A stretch of 64,000 bases of DNA from Candidatus Hadarchaeum sp. (GTDB lineage: Archaea; Hadarchaeota; Hadarchaeia; Hadarchaeales; Hadarchaeaceae). Within the stretch, counting starts at the first letter, position 1, and every line of letters begins with the position of its first letter. The translations under genes were made by a program, and so were the position numbers. Positions 2,687-23,403 of the stretch are shown here, one piece after another. Location: the NCBI RefSeq assembly GCF_038871235.1, contig NZ_JAVZIN010000005.1, forward strand, positions 1 through 64,000. The letters are read 5' to 3'. The notes below the pieces were generated by a model. It was not told where the DNA came from and ran no database searches. It saw nothing but the letters and a program-made list of their open reading frames with translations.

Positions 2687-3722
2687 ATGGAAAAGGTCGG
2701 AGTCGGGATCGCCGGTTTAGGATTTATGGCCCGGGTTCATTCAAGGGCTTTGGTCGAGATCCCGGAGGCAAAGATAGTTGCTGCCTGGTCCAAGTTTCCT
2801 GAAGAACATGGAAAATTTGAAGTTCGCGGATGGACTTGGGTTCAAGATCAAGAGGTTTTATACCGAAATTGAAAAAATGGCCAGCGATCCTGAAGTCGAG
2901 GCGGTCATCTGCGCCATACCTCCCAGATTCATGGTACCCGTTGCCGCCGAAATCATAGGAGCCGGAAAGACCGCCCTTCTAGAATGCCCACCTTCAGATA
3001 AACTGGAAGGAATAGACCAACTCAGTGAACTGGCAAAAAGACAAAAAGTTAAGGTAATGCCGGGACTCTACTACCGCTTTGTCCCCTGCTTCAGGAAGGT
3101 AAAGGATCTCATCGAAGCTGGTGAGATCGGCAGCCCAGTGTCTGTCGGCTTCAAAGAGTTCGTGCCAGCTGACAGCTTGGCTAGGCAATGGTCACCTGAT
3201 TCATGGTCTTGGAACATATCTAATGGTGGACCCATACCGATGATGACCATTTTCTGCATGGATCTGGCCCGCTGGATCTTGAAGTCAGAACCCATCTCAT
3301 TTTCAGCCTCGATCAGATGGTTGGAGCTCCCCAAGTACGGCACATTAGGATACCAAGTGACAAACGTGATCAGATTTAAAAACAATGTAGTCTGGAGCAA
3401 CGAATTCACTAGCGACGACAGTCCTCAAGCAGGTCCGCCGCTGAAGATGGAAATTCTGGACCATGAGGGCAACGCTGTGATCGTCGACGGACCTGAAAAG
3501 GTAATTCTTAGAACAGAGGGAGAGAGAAAGGAATGGTCCTTACAGCTATCTCGAACCGAGCGCTGTAGCCACAAGACTGAGGATAAGTATTTTCTCAGAT
3601 CGGTGGTTTTGAAAAAGGAAGAACCGGTAGTAAACTTAACGGACGCGAAAAAGGCGCTGATGATGTCGCTAGCAATTTTGAAATCATCCCAAAGCGAAAA
3701 TCCGGTCTCCTTCAAATCTTAA
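2687..3722 (+). pseudogene. Gfo/Idh/MocA oxidoreductase, frameshifted near 2815-2822
   Basis: Rossmann GIAGLGFMARVH in one frame (2687-2872); the rest of the family fold (LECPPS, RF, GEIG) is in the +1 frame (2778-3722). Confidence 0.7.
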
Positions 3723-3866
3723 TTTCACCAATTTCTTCCCATTGATAACTAAACCGTTTCCTCGTCTCTTTAAACATCCAAATTTCAAAAATCATGAACT
3801 ATAAGGTCTAACTGGCAAAAATTATCGCTTTTTTCGCAATTCCCAATTTTGAAATATCTCAATTTT

Positions 3867-3884
3867 CCAAAAAATCTTTAAAAA
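3867..3884 (+). promoter_or_regulatory. BRE/TATA-like promoter for ncRNA copy 1
   Basis: CCAAAAAATC-TTTAAAAA; the TATA-like octamer 3877-3884 lies about 22-29 nt upstream of the RNA 5' stem at 3906. Confidence 0.6.
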
Positions 3885-3905
3885 CAAAGACGCGGAAAGA
3901 ATAGT

Positions 3906-4139
3906 GCGGCAGGGATCAAAGCCTGCAGAGGTGGTCAAACCGGAGCCTACGGGCAACGGGGACCCGTGTAAAAACCCGGGCGAAAAACCGGGGAAGGACG
4001 CGGGTAAGTTCCGTGGAAGAACGGGACGAGACAGCGACTGCAGGAAAAAGATCCCAACACGAAAAGACGGCGAGTAAACGAAGTGGTCGAGATTCGTGAG
4101 CTCGCTGGACGAGTAGTGGAGGGATCGAGTCCCTGCCGC
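3906..4139 (+). ncRNA. Large structured ncRNA of unrecognised family, copy 1 (234 nt)
   Basis: 10-bp terminal stem GCGGCAGGGA/UCCCUGCCGC, several nested helices, GC-rich island in AT-rich intergenic DNA, upstream TATA, downstream T-tract; covaries with 21010-21209. Confidence 0.85.
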
Positions 4140-4149
4140 TTTTTATTTT
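4140..4149 (+). terminator. Oligo-T terminator of ncRNA copy 1
   Basis: TTTTTATTTT immediately after the terminal stem. Confidence 0.6.
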
Positions 4150-4190
4150 GGAATCTCAAGCCCTGAAAAGAATTTTTTCTCACTTTCCCG

Positions 4191-4334
4191 TCATTTTTTC
4201 TCAAAACGTTTGGCGTGACTCTCGCAACAAAAGAAGTACTCCTTGCCGCCGATAACCCTCTTGTGAACCGCAAAAACACACTTTTTTCCCTGAATCTCAG
4301 CTTGGCAGAGCTCGCACTTTATAAAATTCTTCAT
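4191..4334 (-). CDS. 47-aa TRASH/YHS-like metal-binding small protein (absent from ORF track)
   Basis: Manual translation [51 protein letters not shown] overlap with iscU stop; GGAGG upstream. Confidence 0.8.
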   Translation of the reverse strand: MKNFIKCELCQAEIQGKKCVFAVHKRVIGGKEYFFCCESHAKRFEKK

Positions 4335-4711
4335 CTTTTACCTCCCTTGGCTAGATAATCCTTTATGGCTGCATGCAGAGCATCGGCGGCCAAATTAGAG
4401 CAATGCATCTTCACTGGCGGCAATCCCCCAAGGTCCTTCGCCACGTCATCCCGAGTTATCCTCAAGGCCTCCTCGATGGTCTTTCCCTTGGCAAGTTCGG
4501 TTGTCATACTGCTTGTGGCTATTGCGGCGCCACAACCGAAGGTCTTGAACTTGATATCGGCTATCCTGTTGTCCTTCACCTTGATATAGATCGTCATCAT
4601 GTCTCCGCACACGGGGTTGCCAACCGTCCCAACGCCATCAGCGTCCGGAATTTCACCCATGTTGCGCGGATTCCTAAAGTGATCCATCACCTTTTCACTA
4701 TACATCCACAA
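4331..4711 (-). CDS. iscU: Fe-S cluster scaffold IscU/NifU
   Basis: [42 protein letters not shown]. Confidence 0.95.
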
Positions 4712-17267: not shown

Positions 17268-18875
17268 ATGACTGAAAGGGTTCAAAAGGATTCGTCGTAC
17301 CTAAATGGTATGTCAATTTCTGGAACGAGAACCCGAGTTCGGGATGTAAGTCCGACAAGTGGAATGTGTCCTATCTGTATTAAAGAATGCCCCGTTCTCT
17401 GCGAGATCAGTCTTTCGGCATTTCGCGGCAGAGAGGTTCTCTACCCATCTCAAAGTTATTTTGGACAAAGCACGGCCGCATCATTAAAGAACTATGATCT
17501 GGATTGGTCACATTTTAACATCCTTTCTAGACTCAGGGGCGCTGAGGGTATATCTCCTGATCCAGACGTTGCTTTATTTGAAAACGTGAACATCGAATCA
17601 GAACTGGGGGGCATCCCCCTCAAAGTGCCACTTGTTACCGGCGCATTTGGTTCCACACCCGTGGCAAAACTTAATTGGGATGCTCTGGCCGTGGGGGCCG
17701 CCCTTTCTGGTGTGATACTAGTTATTGGAGAAAATGTCTGCGGGGTGGATCCGGAATCTAAATACGCCAATGGCAAGGTAACCTACTCCAAAGAACTCGA
17801 ATACAGGGTTAAGAAGTTCAGAGAATTTTGGGACGGAAAATATGGTGATATTTCTGTACAAACTAATGTGGAGGATCAACGAGGGGGCGTTGATATTTAT
17901 GCGATTTCTAAGCTCGAGGTCAACATTATCGAGAGAAAGTGGGGACAAGGGGCTAAGGCCATTGGTGGCGAAATACGGATAACCTCACTTGAGCGAGCCA
18001 TCGCCCTGAAAAAGCGTGGATACGTGGTGTTGCCTGACCCAGAAGATAAAGCTGTCCAAGAAGCGTTTAAAGCCGGGGTTTTCAAGAGCTTTGAGCGCCA
18101 TAGCCGGGTTGGAATGCCGACGGAGAGGGGCTTCGTGGAAGACGTTGAATGGCTGAGGGATCAAGGGGCAAAGAAAGTTACTTTGAAAACAGGAGCCTAT
18201 CGACCCATCGATACTGCATGGACTATGAAAGTTGCATCGGAAGCAAGGGTAGATTATGTAACCTTTGATGGGGCTGGTGGTGGCACGGGCATGAGCCCTG
18301 TGCCGATGATGAACGAAATGAGCACACCAACGGTCTATCTTGAAGCTCAAGTTCTTAAGTGCGCTCAAATACTCAAGAAAAAAGGCCGGTACGTCCCTGA
18401 CATAAGCATGGCAGGTGGTTTCATCAGCGAGGGACAAATTTTCAAAAGTATTGCAATGAGCAATTTCGGGCAAGGACCATTCATAAAAGCCATCACCATG
18501 GCCAGAGCTCCGCTAACAGCAGTGATGAAATCTTCTTATTTTGTGGAACTGGCTAAGGAAAACAAATTGCCACGTGATTTTGCGGAACAATATGGAAGCA
18601 CCCCGGACAAATTTTTCCTAGCGGCATCAAAAATAAAGGAGCTACACGGCGATAGATTCAGCAATATACCGTTCGCTGCCATAGGCCTTTACACATATTT
18701 ATGCGATCGAATCGGTGTCGGACTAAAGCAACTGCTTGCCGGCGCGAGAAAGTGGAATCTCATGTTAATCAACAGAAGCGACCTTGCGGCATTAACTGAA
18801 CGGGCCTCTAGGGTTACTGGAATACCGCTAATGGACGAGACCGAAGCCGATGTGTTTGAGCAGATATTGGAATAG
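17268..18875 (+). CDS. FMN-binding glutamate synthase family protein (archaeal stand-alone)
   Basis: SGMCPIC...C...CE, KWGQGAK.IGGE, DGAGGGTGMSP, MAGG. Confidence 0.85.
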   Translation: MTERVQKDSSYLNGMSISGTRTRVRDVSPTSGMCPICIKECPVLCEISLSAFRGREVLYPSQSYFGQSTAASLKNYDLDWSHFNILSRLRGAEGISPDPDVALFENVNIESELGGIPLKVPLVTGAFGSTPVAKLNWDALAVGAALSGVILVIGENVCGVDPESKYANGKVTYSKELEYRVKKFREFWDGKYGDISVQTNVEDQRGGVDIYAISKLEVNIIERKWGQGAKAIGGEIRITSLERAIALKKRGYVVLPDPEDKAVQEAFKAGVFKSFERHSRVGMPTERGFVEDVEWLRDQGAKKVTLKTGAYRPIDTAWTMKVASEARVDYVTFDGAGGGTGMSPVPMMNEMSTPTVYLEAQVLKCAQILKKKGRYVPDISMAGGFISEGQIFKSIAMSNFGQGPFIKAITMARAPLTAVMKSSYFVELAKENKLPRDFAEQYGSTPDKFFLAASKIKELHGDRFSNIPFAAIGLYTYLCDRIGVGLKQLLAGARKWNLMLINRSDLAALTERASRVTGIPLMDETEADVFEQILE

Positions 18876-18979
18876 TCGTCACAAAAGTTATATTCCATCG
18901 GTGGGCACAAAAGACCAAGAAAAGAAAATTGACTAAAGCTTTTATAAAAACAATTCTCCAAAAATAACAACGGGGAAAA

Positions 18980-19225
18980 ATGGTTGAGGCTTTTATTATG
19001 ATAAAAATCGGTGTTGGCGAGTATCAGAACTTAGTCTTAACTATCAAAGAGAAATTGGAAAAAATGCCGGAGGTAGTCGAGGCCTGCCCTGTGTTCGGAC
19101 GATACGATATGGTGGCAAGAGTCAAGGTAAAAACTTTGGCCGAGCTGACGCGCTTAGTTGGGGATAAAATCAGATCAATTGATGGTGTGACAAACACCGA
19201 AACATTTGTAGTACACGAGGGATAA
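18980..19225 (+). CDS. Stand-alone Lrp/AsnC ligand-binding (RAM) domain protein
   Basis: AFIMI, V.EA..VFGRYDMVARV, IRSIDGVT.TET; no HTH. Confidence 0.85.
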   Translation: MVEAFIMIKIGVGEYQNLVLTIKEKLEKMPEVVEACPVFGRYDMVARVKVKTLAELTRLVGDKIRSIDGVTNTETFVVHEG

Positions 19226-19611
19226 AAGATCCGGTTTGCGGCCGGAAACAGCTAATCTATTGATGCCTCAAGGTCCCTGATGACTACCTAAGCAGCTGCT
19301 GGCCAAACCGTGATTGAGGCCAACCGTTTGATCTCATCACTAGCAGGAGTCCGATCGTAACTCAATGTGCTTTGCGCCGATTGGTGCATCTACAGCGAGT
19401 GCTATTTCGAAAAATCAGAACTAATTAGGGTTGTTGCTTTCTGACCTGCGATTGGGAAAGGCTCCGAACTTTTTTGGTATAACAAATTATGAGGTTGACC
19501 ATCAGGCTGTGGCAAAAGGAGCTTCATAATCTTGATGAGATTAATATGTTAATAGCGTCAAAGTCTTCTAAAGGTTTATAAAGAAGAACAATCATCATCT
19601 TTGGGAAAAAC

Positions 19612-20862
19612 ATGCCCTCAAATTCAAACCCCTTCAGGGCTGCCATAGACCAACTCGAAAGAGTTGGAAAATTACTAAATATAGACCCTTCCACTATAGA
19701 AAGGTTGAAGCATCCACGCCGAGAAATTATCGTATCCGTTCCAATCCGCATGGATAACGGGGAAATAAAAGTCTTTACCGGCTATAGGATCCAGCATTGC
19801 CATGCCCGAGGACCATTCAAGGGAGGGATAAGATACCACCCTAAGGTCGACCAAGAGGAAGTTAAAGCTCTGGCCATGTGGATGACTTGGAAATGCGCGG
19901 TTGTGGACTTACCCTACGGTGGCGCAAAGGGCGGCGTCGCGGTGGACGCGAAAAAACTATCAAAAGGAGAACTGGAGCGATTAACCCGACGTTATACTGC
20001 AATGCTTCTGGACGATATCGGTCCCTATAAAGACGTCCCGGCACCTGATATGTATACAGATGCTCAAACGATGGCCTGGATAATGGACACTTACAGCCAG
20101 TTTAAGGGACATTTAGTTCCAGAAGTTGTTACTGGGAAACCGATAGAGCTTGGAGGTTCTGAAGGGAGAAGAGAAGCCACTGGGCGGGGTGCGGCAATCT
20201 GTGCCAGAGAAGCCGCCAAACAGCTCGGAATGAATATGAAAGGTCTGACAGTCGCAGTTCAGGGTTTCGGAAATGTAGGCCAGTGGGCAGCAAAAATCCT
20301 CGAGGAAATGGGTTGCAAAATAATAGCTCTGAGCGACTCTACCTGTGGAATCTATGATCCAAAGGGATTCGACGTGCGCGCTGTAATGGAGCATAAGGAG
20401 AAAACCGGCAAACTTCGTGGTTTCGCTCATGGAGAAGAGATCACTAATGAAGAGCTTCTGCAACTTGATTGCGATATTCTAGTTCCCGCGGCGATGGAAA
20501 ACGCGATAACTGAATCAAACGCACACAATATAAAGGCAAAAATTATCTGCGAGGGGGCAAACGGTCCGAGCACGCCCAAGGCAAGAGAAATATTGTACAA
20601 TGAAGGAGTGCACGTTATTCCAGATATCCTCGCCAATGCTGGTGGTGTTACCGTCAGCTACTTTGAATGGTTACAAAACCTTCACCGTGAACACTGGAGT
20701 GAGAGTGTCGTCAACCAGAAGCTAGAAAATTATCTAGTGAAAGCCTACCATGATGTCGTCAAGACAGCAGAAGAATACAGGGTCGACTTAGCAACCGGGG
20801 CCTATGTGCTTGGGATCAAAAGAGTTGTAGATGCCCAAGAAAGTCTCGGCTTATTCCCGTAA
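19612..20862 (+). CDS. gdhA: Glutamate dehydrogenase
   Basis: GPFKGGIRYH, MTWKCA, GGAKGG, DVPAPD, VTGKP, VQGFGNVG, EGANGP. Confidence 0.97.
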   Translation: MPSNSNPFRAAIDQLERVGKLLNIDPSTIERLKHPRREIIVSVPIRMDNGEIKVFTGYRIQHCHARGPFKGGIRYHPKVDQEEVKALAMWMTWKCAVVDLPYGGAKGGVAVDAKKLSKGELERLTRRYTAMLLDDIGPYKDVPAPDMYTDAQTMAWIMDTYSQFKGHLVPEVVTGKPIELGGSEGRREATGRGAAICAREAAKQLGMNMKGLTVAVQGFGNVGQWAAKILEEMGCKIIALSDSTCGIYDPKGFDVRAVMEHKEKTGKLRGFAHGEEITNEELLQLDCDILVPAAMENAITESNAHNIKAKIICEGANGPSTPKAREILYNEGVHVIPDILANAGGVTVSYFEWLQNLHREHWSESVVNQKLENYLVKAYHDVVKTAEEYRVDLATGAYVLGIKRVVDAQESLGLFP

Positions 20863-20971
20863 GACCCAAATCCAGAAAAACATTTAATTGTTGAGCCGAA
20901 CCAAATGTGATCGTCTAGATTTTACCTTGATTATAGATGAAAGATCACCGTTAAAAGCGCATTTTAATTTT

Positions 20972-20986
20972 CGAAAAATTTATTAC
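20972..20986 (+). promoter_or_regulatory. BRE/TATA-like promoter for ncRNA copy 2
   Basis: CGAAAAA-TTTATTAC, with the TATA-like element about 24-31 nt upstream of the RNA 5' stem at 21010. Confidence 0.6.
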
Positions 20987-21009
20987 CAAAAAATTTGTTA
21001 ACTGCAATC

Positions 21010-21209
21010 GCGGGGATAAGCCGACAGAACAGGCTGAACTCCACCTACGGGTGCGGGGGATCCACGGAAAAACTCAGCGCAGCTGGGGGAGGCCGTGGAT
21101 AAGGTGCACAGCGGTGTGCACCGAAGCATGGATGTCGGATAAAGATCACGAAACGAAAGCGCGGCAGGGTAACCGGGCCGCCGCGGAGTAGTTTCGTGAT
21201 CGTCCCCGC
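21010..21209 (+). ncRNA. Large structured ncRNA of unrecognised family, copy 2 (200 nt)
   Basis: Terminal stem GCGGGGAU/GUCCCCGC, 11-bp GAUCACGAAAC/GUUUCGUGAUC, and the same helix order and junction nucleotides as 3906-4139. Confidence 0.85.
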
Positions 21210-21329
21210 ACAAAAATTATTCCAAATTATCACACGAAGGCCTATTGTAACCTCATCAAATTTCTCTGGCTCATTATGCACGATCGCGAATTGAAATTAT
21301 TTAAATGAGTATGGTGGAACTATCCCTAG

Positions 21330-22670
21330 CTACAGCGCCGGCAACAAAAACTTGTGCTCCCAGTCGCTTACGTGTGCCCGGTAACTCTCCCACTCCTTTT
21401 CCTTGACATAGATAAAGTGCTTGAAAAGGTGTTCACCCAGCGCCTCCCTTATCAACTCACTCCGACGCATGTAATCCAGAGCCTGACCCAAGTTCTCTGG
21501 CAACGATTCTATACCCAAGGCCTCGCGATCCTCGGAGCTCATGTGGTAGATATCCTTCTCCACCGGCTCAGGCGGCTCTATCTTATCCTCAATTCCCTTC
21601 AACCCTGCTGCCAACATCACCGTGAACTGAAGATAAGGGTTGCCCGCCGGATCTGGGTTGCGAAGCTCGATACGTGTATGGGATCCTCTCCCCGCCGGAA
21701 CGCGGATATAAGCGCTCCTGTTTCTGTTCGCCCAAGAGATGTAAACCGGGGCCTCGTAACCTGGCACCAGCCTCTTGTAGGAGTTTACTGTTGAAGCCAA
21801 GATGGCGCAAGTCTCCTTGGCATACTTCAGGAGCCCACCGATGAAGTAAAGTGCATACTTGCTCAGTTTGTAGGATCCCTTTGGGTCGTAAAATACATTT
21901 TTTCCCTCAGGGGTCATAAGCGACTGGTGGACGTGCATCCCTGAGCCATTGACGCCGTAGATGGGCTTGGGCATGAAGGTGGCGTAAAGGCCGTGGCGAT
22001 AGGCGATGTTCTTGGTGACGTACTTCATCATGGCCACTCGGTCGGCTGAAGTCATGGCATCAGCGTACATGAGATCTATCTCGTGCTGCCCGGGAGCAAC
22101 TTCATGGTGCGAGGCCTCCACATCAAAACCCATCAGATTAAGATAGTTAACTATCTCCTTCCTGATGAGATCACCCCTATCTCTCATCAGGTCAAAGTAT
22201 CCTCCTGAGTCCGAAGGTCTAGTCGTTGGCAAACCCTGCTCATCTAACATCAAGAAGAAGAACTCATACTCCGGAGCCGTGTTGAAGGTCCAGCCTTTTT
22301 TCTTGGCCTTCTCTAGCTGTCTTTTTAATGCCGCCCGCGGATCCCCCTCAAAGGGATTGCCCTCATGATCATAAACATCGCAAACCATCCGCGCCGTCTT
22401 AAGAGTGTCCTGCAACCAAGGAATAATCACAAAAGTTTCCGTATCTGGCATCAGGCGCATGTCAGATTCCTCGATGGTGGCATAGCCTAAAACCGACGAT
22501 CCATCGAAGAAGACCCCTTCATCCAGAGCCTTTTCAATCTTGGTGGCGGGAATGGTGACGTTTTTAACCGTGCCAAGAATATCGGTGAACTGCATCTGGA
22601 TGAACTTTATGCCCTCCCTCTTCACTGTTTGAATTATCTCGGCCTTGGACATCCTCTCAACCCCACTCAT
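21330..22670 (-). CDS. glnA: Glutamine synthetase type I
   Basis: FTDI.G..K, FDGSS, HHEVAPGQHEI, TFMPKP, NGSGMHVH, NSYKRLVPGYEAP, RIELR.PD. Confidence 0.97.
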   Translation of the reverse strand: MSGVERMSKAEIIQTVKREGIKFIQMQFTDILGTVKNVTIPATKIEKALDEGVFFDGSSVLGYATIEESDMRLMPDTETFVIIPWLQDTLKTARMVCDVYDHEGNPFEGDPRAALKRQLEKAKKKGWTFNTAPEYEFFFLMLDEQGLPTTRPSDSGGYFDLMRDRGDLIRKEIVNYLNLMGFDVEASHHEVAPGQHEIDLMYADAMTSADRVAMMKYVTKNIAYRHGLYATFMPKPIYGVNGSGMHVHQSLMTPEGKNVFYDPKGSYKLSKYALYFIGGLLKYAKETCAILASTVNSYKRLVPGYEAPVYISWANRNRSAYIRVPAGRGSHTRIELRNPDPAGNPYLQFTVMLAAGLKGIEDKIEPPEPVEKDIYHMSSEDREALGIESLPENLGQALDYMRRSELIREALGEHLFKHFIYVKEKEWESYRAHVSDWEHKFLLPAL

Positions 22671-22725
22671 CTCCTTGTCCTCGGTATTTATAACTGGTGA
22701 TTCTGTATAATGGAAAATACACTTC

Positions 22726-23403
22726 TCAACCCTCATTTTCCGGAGTAATCGCCCGGCCGCCGTATAACTCTGTAATGGTCAGCTTCAGGGCACTATTCTC
22801 TCGGTAAATGCGGAAGGAAAACATCTCCGCAGAATAATTTTCATTGAGCTCCTTCTCCAATGCCGCGATGTCGGCTGCCCGCTGGGCCCAGCTGTAGGCT
22901 AGGTTGGCCAGATAGAGCATCCTCCCGTAGCGCGGAACTACGCCGGCATCCAGCTTGACTCCGTAGGCCTTGGCTCCCGAAACGTGGTTGAAGCTCGCCT
23001 CTAGGTAACCATAGGCGCGGAGTCCACCATCGGGAAGCCACTCAATCTGCAGCGAGTTTTCATCGCTTAGCGGCACGTAGATGTTTTCGAAATTGGAGTA
23101 CGACCAGCCCGCGGCAATGCGCTGGTTAAAGTAGCTGCGCAACCGGGATTCCACCTCTGCCTTAGATCCGGCAAACTTACCCACCTCAAACATGGCCGCT
23201 GCAATCGCTGATCTGAGCGAATCGTTCAACTCCGCCTCAATGACCAGAGCCACGGCCCTGGTGGTATCAACGGCCATTCTTTCCTGTAAAACCTCTATCT
23301 GACGTGTATAGCTGGATTCGAATGTGTTCAAGGCAGCTATCCCAGCAAGGATCACAAACACAGTGAATATCGCCAGCAGCTCAGCCGATCCCAGTTCGTC
23401 CAT
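22726..23403 (-). CDS. Putative pilin / class III signal peptide protein
   Basis: MDELG|SAELLAIF hydrophobic N-terminus; last gene of pilus operon. Confidence 0.6.
   Translation of the reverse strand: MDELGSAELLAIFTVFVILAGIAALNTFESSYTRQIEVLQERMAVDTTRAVALVIEAELNDSLRSAIAAAMFEVGKFAGSKAEVESRLRSYFNQRIAAGWSYSNFENIYVPLSDENSLQIEWLPDGGLRAYGYLEASFNHVSGAKAYGVKLDAGVVPRYGRMLYLANLAYSWAQRAADIAALEKELNENYSAEMFSFRIYRENSALKLTITELYGGRAITPENEG

Follow-up and report, generated by a model that had tools for sequence, protein, structure and literature searches.

To our knowledge, large intricate RNAs that are conserved across an order are rare, and almost all of those known are ribozymes, riboswitches or the cores of essential ribonucleoproteins (RNPs); we know of very few such large structured RNAs contributed by archaea. 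OLE, ROOL, GOLLD and raiA are reportedly large, ornate bacterial RNAs with no assigned function, all of them in Rfam. Here we describe an RNA gene at positions 3906-4139 of the + strand in a 64,000-nt stretch of DNA from Candidatus Hadarchaeum sp. (contig NZ_JAVZIN010000005.1, positions 1 to 64,000; 'the window' in the following), and refer to its product as the Hadarchaea RNA. It resembles OLE, ROOL, GOLLD and raiA in being lineage-restricted, unusually complex, abundant and found by comparative analysis. However, it does not match them in sequence or structure, and it differs from them in its archaeal host, its smaller size, its several paralogues and its apparently circular form.

In its layout, the closest described molecule is 5S rRNA, which likewise has a closing helix made of both ends, a three-way junction and an arm with a loop-E-type internal loop. 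The other arm of the Hadarchaea RNA is a four-way junction, however, and its GAA and AGUA strands are, by eye, placed differently. Y RNA and the bacterial YrlA, the RNAs found with Ro (Rsr), share with it their abundance, a terminal stem of both ends and a tRNA-like multi-helix module. In contrast to those systems, no TROVE-domain protein was found in the genome, and there is no match to the Rfam Y_RNA model.

Circular noncoding RNAs are already known in hyperthermophilic archaea, and the RNA family described here is itself new. Excerpts of one study report circles that include C/D box sRNAs, parts of RNase P and 7S RNA, introns and pre-rRNAs (PMC3326292), and excerpts of another state that the C/D sRNA circles of Thermococcus need the ATP-dependent Rnl ligase (PMC9014305). 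As far as these excerpts describe them, the known circles have in common with the Hadarchaea RNA that a stable noncoding RNA has its ends joined via its structure, that the host is a thermophilic archaeon and that stabilization is the rationale. They belong to known families that also occur as linear molecules, whereas the Hadarchaea RNA belongs to an unknown family and is four times longer than C/D sRNAs.

We propose that the Hadarchaea RNA is a new, lineage-specific RNA with its own transcription, which is ligated into a circle and whose expression is controlled through an upstream palindrome. We assign this explanation as a whole, its function excluded, a probability of about 0.6. That it is a real, new and independently transcribed structured RNA family we consider very probable.

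Fold, phylogenetic range and covariation

The gene as modelled (3906..4139, 234 nt, + strand) folds with a minimum free energy (MFE) of -121.1 kcal/mol, compared with -73.1 ± 5.0 kcal/mol for 200 dinucleotide shuffles (z -9.58), none of which equals it. The value for the minus strand is weaker (-90.2 kcal/mol, z -5.98). The + strand is taken as the RNA because its many G-U pairs would become C-A on the opposite strand. An earlier reading of this DNA, made from the letters alone (the sequence-only reading), had proposed a helix architecture that the unconstrained MFE fold reproduces, and its coordinates for the helices, the TATA box (3877-3884) and the T-tract (4140-4149) all check against the sequence.

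Helix P1 (3906-3915/4130-4139, extended to 3916/4129 in the MFE structure, so that the 5' strand 3906..3916 pairs with 4129-4139) leads into a three-way junction; all helices given here are on the + strand. One arm starts with P2 (3922-3928/4038-4044 in the MFE structure), which is extended by P2a (3931-3932 and 3934-3936 paired with 4030-4032 and 4034-4035) and leads into a four-way junction with three hairpins, P3 to P5. The P3 hairpin (3940..3959) contains a tandem GA/AA internal loop and a UACG tetraloop, C(UACG)G, which is replaced by UAAG in other genera; P3 is the most conserved sequence of the family. The P4/P4a hairpin (3962..4005, stem 3962-3969/3998-4005) combines a conserved 5x5 internal loop, AAAAA/GRAGG (AAAAA/GAAGG in this copy), with the conserved apical loop GCGAAAAA. 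P5 (4008..4027) is a variable stem with a GGNRGA loop. The second arm, or 3' domain (4050..4126), is built of P6 (4050-4055/4121-4126), P6a (4058-4060/4116-4118), an internal loop (4061-4067/4108-4115), P7 (4068-4075/4100-4107) and P8 (4078-4082/4093-4097). The internal loop has conserved GAA...AA and GAGUA strands and presumably resembles the loop E or sarcin-ricin motif.

This gene (copy 1) is one of three paralogues in a 1.2-Mb genome (our G000; 16 contigs, 94.75% complete). BLAST and R1, a covariance model made from two sequences, found copy 1, copy 2 at 21010-21209 and a third copy on another contig, at G000:C8:45464-45695, so that the two-member family described in the sequence-only reading has to be enlarged. 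The claim that the element at 21010-21209 has the same architecture held up: its fold has a z of -8.02, and 16 of 55 consensus pairs are already compensatory between the two window copies alone. Copy 2 (200 nt, + strand) is a paralogue of the short type defined below. It has the same core as copy 1, with another P4 loop, another P5 and a shorter apex of the 3' domain. A fourth match in the genome, at C2:114142-114276 (12.4 bits), lies inside a coding sequence, has no meaningful Rfam match even at permissive thresholds and is spurious.

R1 matched 43 of 61 related genomes. An improved model, R2 (229 positions, 66 pairs), found the RNA in 51 of 66 Hadarchaeota genomes with 1-6 matches each, amounting to well over a hundred copies across the phylum. 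The matches are spread over the Hadarchaeota families f1 (39/45 genomes), f2 (6/6), f3 (1/1), f5 (3/3) and f4 (1/9), with none in the single genome of f6 (0/1). At the level of genera, the RNA is missing from all 7 genomes of g15 and is present in 1 of the 4 genomes of g10. R2 had no match in the 280 genomes of three other archaeal phyla (0/121, 0/121 and 0/38). We also scanned a collection of 185,579 species' genomes for the exact 22-nt motif of the P3 hairpin, a scan that favours the long type of the RNA, and found 61 stretches, 59 of which are titled Hadesarchaea, Hadarchaeota, Hadarchaeales, Hadarchaeum or Hodarchaeaceae; the other two are titled 'uncultured archaeon' and 'Methanobacteriota archaeon'. 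The same motif was not found in 2.9 million viral contigs. The RNA family is thus restricted to Hadarchaeota, uncultivated heat-loving archaea. This restriction, together with the third copy and the circular form described below, goes beyond what the sequence-only reading had claimed.

The family comprises two types. The long type has 228-236 nt and carries the nearly invariant apical loop AAGUGGUCGAGAUU on P8, which is found in this type only. The short type has about 200-210 nt, another apex and no P4 loop sequence. The 73 full-length distinct sequences divide into 62 long and 11 short ones, and most genomes contain both types together. In three places (G035:C38:4802-4992, G007:C18:7-184 and G008:C30:5-155) we observed two adjacent partial matches that cover the three-hairpin core (model positions ~28-122) and the 3' domain (~137-218), with P1 and P2 absent. 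They are mostly near contig ends and could be divergent variants, decayed copies or assembly breaks.

The sequence-only reading had let the RNA stand or fall with covariation beyond the two copies, and such covariation was found across the 51 genomes. In an alignment of 105 matches (76 distinct sequences) fitted to the covariance model, 92.4% of the cells form pairs, compared with 79.8% with shuffled partners and 33-41% with partners slid by 1-3 columns. At 52 of 71 pairs both sides change in a compensatory way, and none of 500 shuffles reaches any of the five measures used. Compensatory pairs occur in all ten helices. Both sides have changed at 6 of 11 pairs in helix 1 (P1), and the compensatory fraction is 9/12 in helix 2 (P2/P2a), 5/8 and 5/5 in helices 4 and 5 (P4/P4a), 7/7 in P5, and 4/6, 3/3, 8/8 and 3/5 in helices 7-10 of the 3' domain. 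Because this alignment was fitted to the model, we added a structure-blind one: MAFFT followed by RNAalifold on 37 of the 76 sequences gave the same helices, with 41 of 56 pairs compensatory. The fold is maintained through compensatory changes across an archaeal order.

The sequence-only reading could not match the RNA to any known family, and none of the 4227 models of Rfam 15 matches the 64-kb window at its gathering threshold either. A search of both copies at E<=10 gave noise only, with no local match to small- or large-subunit (SSU or LSU) rRNA. The three matches, all below cut-off, were a base-pair-free vertebrate lncRNA model (13.9 bits, cut-off 55), the Streptococcus sRNA SpF36 (19.9 bits, cut-off 48) and the C/D sRNA sR60 (12 bits, cut-off 50). 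ARAGORN found no tRNA in the window, and full-text literature searches returned no description of this RNA.

Several specific identities were considered and rejected. The genome's canonical 5S RNA lies elsewhere (G000:C1:83538-83658, 121 nt, 93.6 bits), and RF00001 has no match at the locus even at E<=10, which speaks against a 5S identity or origin. RNase P RNA (C7:68657-68944, 198 bits) and SRP RNA (C14:14838-15145, 154.7 bits; RF00373/RF01857 test) are also found elsewhere above their cut-offs, and the Hadarchaea RNA is present in three copies. The 16S gene, too, is on another contig than the window. A fragment of rRNA supplied in trans was dismissed on the lack of any local SSU or LSU match at E<=10. 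Y RNA was rejected since PF05731 (TROVE/Ro) has no match in G000, while control genomes of Deinococcus and Bacteroides do match. A C/D box sRNA-type circle does not fit either: no Rnl ligase was found in G000, and no C/D boxes were seen by eye.

Transcription signals, abundance and the circular form

Each gene of the family carries its own TATA promoter and a T-tract terminator at a fixed distance. An A-rich stretch and a TATA box (CTTAAATA, TTTAAAAA or TATAAATA) precede nearly every gene. Between the end of the TATA box and the mature 5' G (of GC(R)GGG) there are most often 24 nt, and 22-26 nt in 39 of 53 regex matches; the 5S gene of this genome is spaced similarly from its TATA box. Position -1 is occupied by G in 66 of 68 genes. 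At the other end, TTTT occurs within 15 nt downstream in 70 of the 73 full-length distinct genes. For copy 1, the TATA box TTTAAAAA at 3877-3884 (+ strand) forms part of an A-rich, BRE-like stretch plus TATA box at 3869..3884 (+), and the T-tract TTTTTATTTT at 4140..4149 (+), an archaeal-type terminator, directly follows P1. Copy 2 has the TATA-like box TTTATTA at 20979..20985 (+), 24 nt before its 5' G.

In the long type, a palindrome, GGARATATYTCC, is found about 16 nt upstream of the TATA box. With up to two mismatches allowed, it is present at 46 of 61 long-type genes with enough flank and at 0 of 10 short-type genes. It stays with the gene where the genomic surroundings differ, and the promoters of this genome do not carry it as a general element. 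Copy 1 has a degenerate version, TGAAATATCTCA, at 3850..3861 (+), whose centre lies about 50 nt ahead of the RNA's 5' end. The palindrome is likely the site of a dedicated transcription regulator. A processing stem between the TATA region (ATCCTTAAA) and the region behind the terminator (TTTAAGGAT), which can be drawn in some genera, was dropped because one of its halves is a coding end and the leader and trailer are not complementary overall: TTTAAGGAT represents the last codons and stop (...K P stop) of the convergent reductase described below and is, by eye, unconserved in other contexts.

The stretch or a part of it is contained in 20 public runs from 11 studies, and five of these runs are on record as RNA; a 21st run is linked to them only through its study. 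Contigs of four RNA libraries, three from one study (X4, X8 and X15) and one from another (X20), were aligned to positions 3600-4500. Their cover is confined to about 3910-4139 and ends at the T-tract (4140..4149); the contig-free parts of the stretch are no evidence of silence. Summed over all contigs at least 90% alike, and thus pooling many strains rather than giving copies per cell, the word depth inside the RNA reaches 218,276 in X4 and 99,998 in X8. The depth of the flanks in X4 is 0 upstream and 5-33 over the neighbouring open reading frames (ORFs). A difference of four orders of magnitude from the flanks in the same run points to a very abundant and stable RNA. A discrete transcript in metatranscriptomes, which the sequence-only reading had suggested looking for, is what these contigs represent: they cover the RNA alone, at very high summed depth. 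Together with the fixed-distance promoter and terminator, they bear out its view that the RNA is independently transcribed. Excerpts of a study of rRNA report high expression of Hadarchaeota in its RNA data (PMC12918454).

Some of the contigs run through the end of the RNA and back into its beginning. A 241-nt contig of X8 (depth 715) joins 4137 to 3909 and continues for 54 nt past the joint, which is ambiguous by 2 nt, and a second back-joint, from 4131 to 3913, was found in X4 (depth 386). Two loose ends in X4 show the 3' ends of related copies (...CCCTGCCAC and ...TTCCCGCCAT) directly joined to their own 5' ends (GCAGGG... and GCGGGAAC...). In the RNA contigs, the circular form of copy 1 has 229-231 nt and extends from about 3909 to 4137-4139 (+ strand). 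Its 5' end is a G about 24 nt 3' of the TATA box, G3909, so that the first 3 nt of P1 (GCG) lie upstream of it. At the 3' end, two relatives have CAC or CAU after P1, and the window-like variant has a single base there or else a register that is shifted. Since the 3' end is the end of P1 plus 1-3 nt, P1 would be capped by a tiny loop in the circle. The circular fold retains the entire structure.

A head-to-tail arrangement of the gene was absent both from the genomes searched and from 4.1 Mb of DNA with more than 100 gene copies; a loose junction regex gave 39 matches in that DNA, none of which, by eye, has a 3' domain before and a 5' domain after it. In contigs of one study, without a DNA control, the 3' end is thus joined to the 5' end, as expected of an archaeal circular RNA. 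Based on these joints, the RNA is probably a covalently closed circle.

Gene neighbourhoods

Copy 1 lies between convergent genes, as the sequence-only reading had noted. On one side is a GFO/IDH/MocA oxidoreductase gene (2778-3722, +), and on the other a 47-aa TRASH-like ORF (4191-4334, -), followed by NifU and IscS (-). This 47-aa ORF is an unlisted, Cys-rich one directly upstream of NifU-IscS. It has a GGAGGT ribosome-binding site and a weak match to TRASH/YHS-type metal-binding domains (19 bits, below cut-off). Opposite the RNA strand there is also a 110-aa ORF (3947-4279, -) without a Pfam match, which almost certainly arises as an artefact from the high G+C content of the RNA gene.

Copy 2 is flanked by genes for glutamate dehydrogenase (GDH; 19612-20862) and glutamine synthetase (GlnA; 21330-22736, -). 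Its surroundings (17268-22736), which include a glutamate-synthase-like gene (17268-18875), are those of nitrogen assimilation, and the locus is genus-specific. The NifU locus of copy 1 is likewise confined to the genus. Neither copy 1 nor copy 2 has a gene for a nuclease, transposase or reverse transcriptase next to it.

Across the phylum, the commonest locus has the RNA between a divergent DRG-type GTPase gene and a convergent gene for a geranylgeranyl-reductase-like flavoprotein. Of the 76 distinct copies, 37 are followed by the convergent reductase, and most of these 37 have the divergent GTPase in front of them. In at least 14 of the 76, the RNA lies 7-240 nt upstream of a co-oriented gene for a family-B DNA polymerase (PolB), an arrangement that includes families with a single copy per genome. 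In one genus, short and long types stand in tandem, about 85 nt apart. The RNA genes are therefore not tied to one neighbour, as NifU/IscS, GDH/GlnA, the DRG GTPase/geranylgeranyl reductase pair and PolB all occur next to them.

Elsewhere in the genome, two protein genes (G000:C3:109972-109987 and G000:C2:14760-14774) share 15-16 nt with positions 118-133 of the third copy. The identity is in sense, not antisense, and is probably due to chance.

Circle formation, alternative explanations and significance

In the explanation we favour, transcription would start at the 5' G or 1-3 nt before it and terminate at the T-tract. After trimming of the transcript, ligation of its two ends, which P1 holds together, would yield a covalently closed circle. 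The circle may shield the RNA from exonucleases and heat and thereby let it accumulate to the levels of housekeeping RNAs, while expression of the long type would be controlled via the palindrome upstream of the TATA box. The RNA may act in trans, as a stable scaffold for proteins in an RNP or for an RNA-RNA assembly, through its purine-rich loops and the loop-E module. The invariant junctions, the loop-E-like module, the tandem G-A loop and the conserved purine-rich apical loops have the look of places where proteins or other RNA could dock. Among the functions considered we rate the RNP scaffold highest, but only as a tentative reading.

Some archaeal circles, namely excised tRNA introns and the circular pre-16S and pre-23S rRNAs, arise from a bulge-helix-bulge (BHB). 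The enzymes of that route, EndA (a 183-aa ORF) and RtcB, are both encoded in this genome as well, and from its size we take EndA to be of the strict homotetrameric type. The permuted SRP RNA of Thermoproteus is also said to be a BHB-dependent circle. Such circles need a BHB formed by leader and trailer, whereas the TATA spacing of the Hadarchaea RNA leaves a leader of only 0-3 nt.

A number of observations weigh against the explanation we propose. No route to the circle was identified. The leader and trailer (30 nt each) have a median complementarity z of -0.03, with 7 of 70 below -2, and because they are not complementary there is no BHB for EndA. An Rnl3-type ligase was not found in the 94.75% complete genome, where PF09414 has no match. 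In the 61 genomes searched, 56 of them Hadarchaeota, the Hadarchaeota matches to PF09414 score only 19-33 bits, in ORFs of mostly about 540-820 aa; the weak matches (about 30 bits, ORFs of about 580 aa) are probably DNA ligase. Strong matches (100-118 bits, ORFs of 378-419 aa) are confined to two genomes of other phyla. The evidence for the circle comes from assembled contigs rather than raw reads, its joints are from two runs of a single study, and X15 and X20, the joint-free runs, have low depth. The three junction sequences disagree on the 3' end, and the summed depths, in which strains are pooled, are unusable as copies per cell. Copy 2 lacks a T-tract directly downstream and is an exception to the family in this respect. 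Finally, no partner protein has emerged from the 20 gene-content candidates annotated out of 107.

These candidates come from a comparison of two RNA-positive genomes of different families, G000 and G037, with G016, an RNA-negative and 95% complete genome of G000's family. It gave 107 ORFs of G000 that are kept in G037 and missing in G016, and 20 of them, picked for high pI or size, were annotated. The 20 include no RNA-binding protein, nuclease or ligase. Many are transport proteins (three P-type ATPases, CbiM/Q, CitMHS, GDT1, an ABC permease and an MscS-type channel domain). The others are a rhomboid protease, the predicted membrane protein DUF2101, MoaC/MoeA, a radical SAM protein, thymidylate kinase, thioredoxin-like and rubrerythrin-like proteins, ArsR-type and DUF134 regulators, and one protein without a family. 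What G016 lacks may reflect a reduction of its genome at large and have no connection with the RNA.

The circle could be made by a protein ligase that has escaped recognition, by RtcB after a nuclease has removed the 5' G, or by self-processing. The last of these would make the RNA a ribozyme: its 3' hydroxyl could attack the bond between G(-1) and G(+1), freeing the 1-3-nt leader and closing the circle without a protein ligase, or the 5' triphosphate; alternatively, self-cleavage could give ends that RtcB can join. The size and complexity of the RNA, with its ten covarying helices and invariant junction bases, are in the range of ribozymes, the G at -1 is conserved in 66 of 68 genes yet lies outside the circle, and RtcB is present while a BHB-type stem of leader and trailer and an Rnl3 ligase were not found. 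However, no ribozyme family of Rfam matches, there is no direct evidence of catalysis, the variable base at the 3' junction fits trimming and a protein ligase better than a precise transesterification, and an unrecognised protein ligase or nuclease is more economical. That the circle closes by itself or in some other unconventional way, using neither BHB/EndA nor Rnl3, in an RNA made at rRNA-like levels that might be a ribozyme, is quite unlikely in our judgement, and so is the ribozyme in either of its variants. A different use of the fold would be an RNA-only multimer of the kind that ROOL, GOLLD and OLE reportedly form, held together by loop-loop contacts such as the self-complementary UCGA of the long-type P8 loop, or by short-type GNRA loops docking into the long type. 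The high abundance, the conserved apical loops without an intramolecular partner, and the co-occurrence of long and short types in most genomes, in tandem in one genus, would suit such an assembly. But the loops hardly vary, so that covariation cannot test the contact, a four-base palindrome is weak evidence, and f2 and f5 have a single copy per genome, so that a long-short heteromer is not general; we consider the multimer unlikely.

The neighbourhoods bear on the question whether the RNA acts in cis, as a leader, attenuator or riboswitch of a downstream gene, often PolB, or as the 3' UTR of an upstream one. Both window copies come after a co-oriented gene, and the position upstream of a co-oriented PolB gene recurs in one-copy families. 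Nevertheless, both window copies and the 37 DRG GTPase/reductase loci face a convergent downstream gene, the TATA box at its fixed distance and the TTTT in 70 of 73 genes delimit a separate transcript, and the RNA contigs stop at both RNA ends and join them. Convergent neighbours, a terminator and a discrete circular product thus make a cis-regulator very unlikely, while a local effect on PolB may still exist at some of those copies (at least 14 of 76). A guide RNA of a transposon or defence nuclease (omega RNA of TnpB/IscB, bridge RNA, retron or DRT ncRNA) was rejected, as the neighbours are differing housekeeping genes; the absence of a suitable neighbour makes a guide RNA for an adjoining enzyme unlikely in general. 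Action in trans by base pairing, as a regulatory sRNA, or by titrating a protein through GGA-rich and purine-rich loops, as a sponge, would agree with several paralogues per genome, the variable P5 and apex, the purine-rich unpaired regions and a promoter that looks regulated. Yet the 13-mers in the genome that are complementary to the three copies number 8, 8 and 19, are scattered and are at about chance level, the longest run is one of sense identity rather than antisense, and the variable parts covary as helices instead of forming free seed regions. We find such a role distinctly unlikely, with the qualification that a protein sponge overlaps with the scaffold and is inseparable from it here. 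The multiple copies, the promoter that new copies bring along and the circular RNA might also suggest a mobile or selfish element (MITE-like, viroid-like or viral), and the three-way junction with a loop-E arm recalls the 5S layout and with it a divergent universal RNA (5S, SRP or RNase P). Neither is at all probable. The conserved synteny across genera, the low number of copies (1-6 per genome) and the compensatory changes, which imply selection on the RNA and its pairing, argue against a mobile element, as does the absence from 2.9 million viral contigs; the canonical 5S, SRP and RNase P RNAs are encoded elsewhere, and the genome's 5S is, by eye, unlike this RNA.

Hadarchaeota inhabit hot springs and the deep subsurface, have very small genomes and have not been cultivated. 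Ten covarying helices, invariant junctions and a promoter of its own, probably a regulated one, characterise their RNA, which has several paralogues in a genome of 1 Mb. It appears to exceed the neighbouring genes in abundance by orders of magnitude, and it is apparently circular without a recognisable route. It belongs in RNA family databases, as it will otherwise be miscalled as ORFs such as 3947-4279 (-). Its small size makes it amenable to chemical probing, cryo-EM and in vitro assays of circularisation, and it offers a testable handle on the roles of abundant orphan structured RNAs and on archaeal circularisation without a BHB. If the unconventional closure were true, the Hadarchaea RNA would represent a new natural RNA class on a par with housekeeping RNPs.

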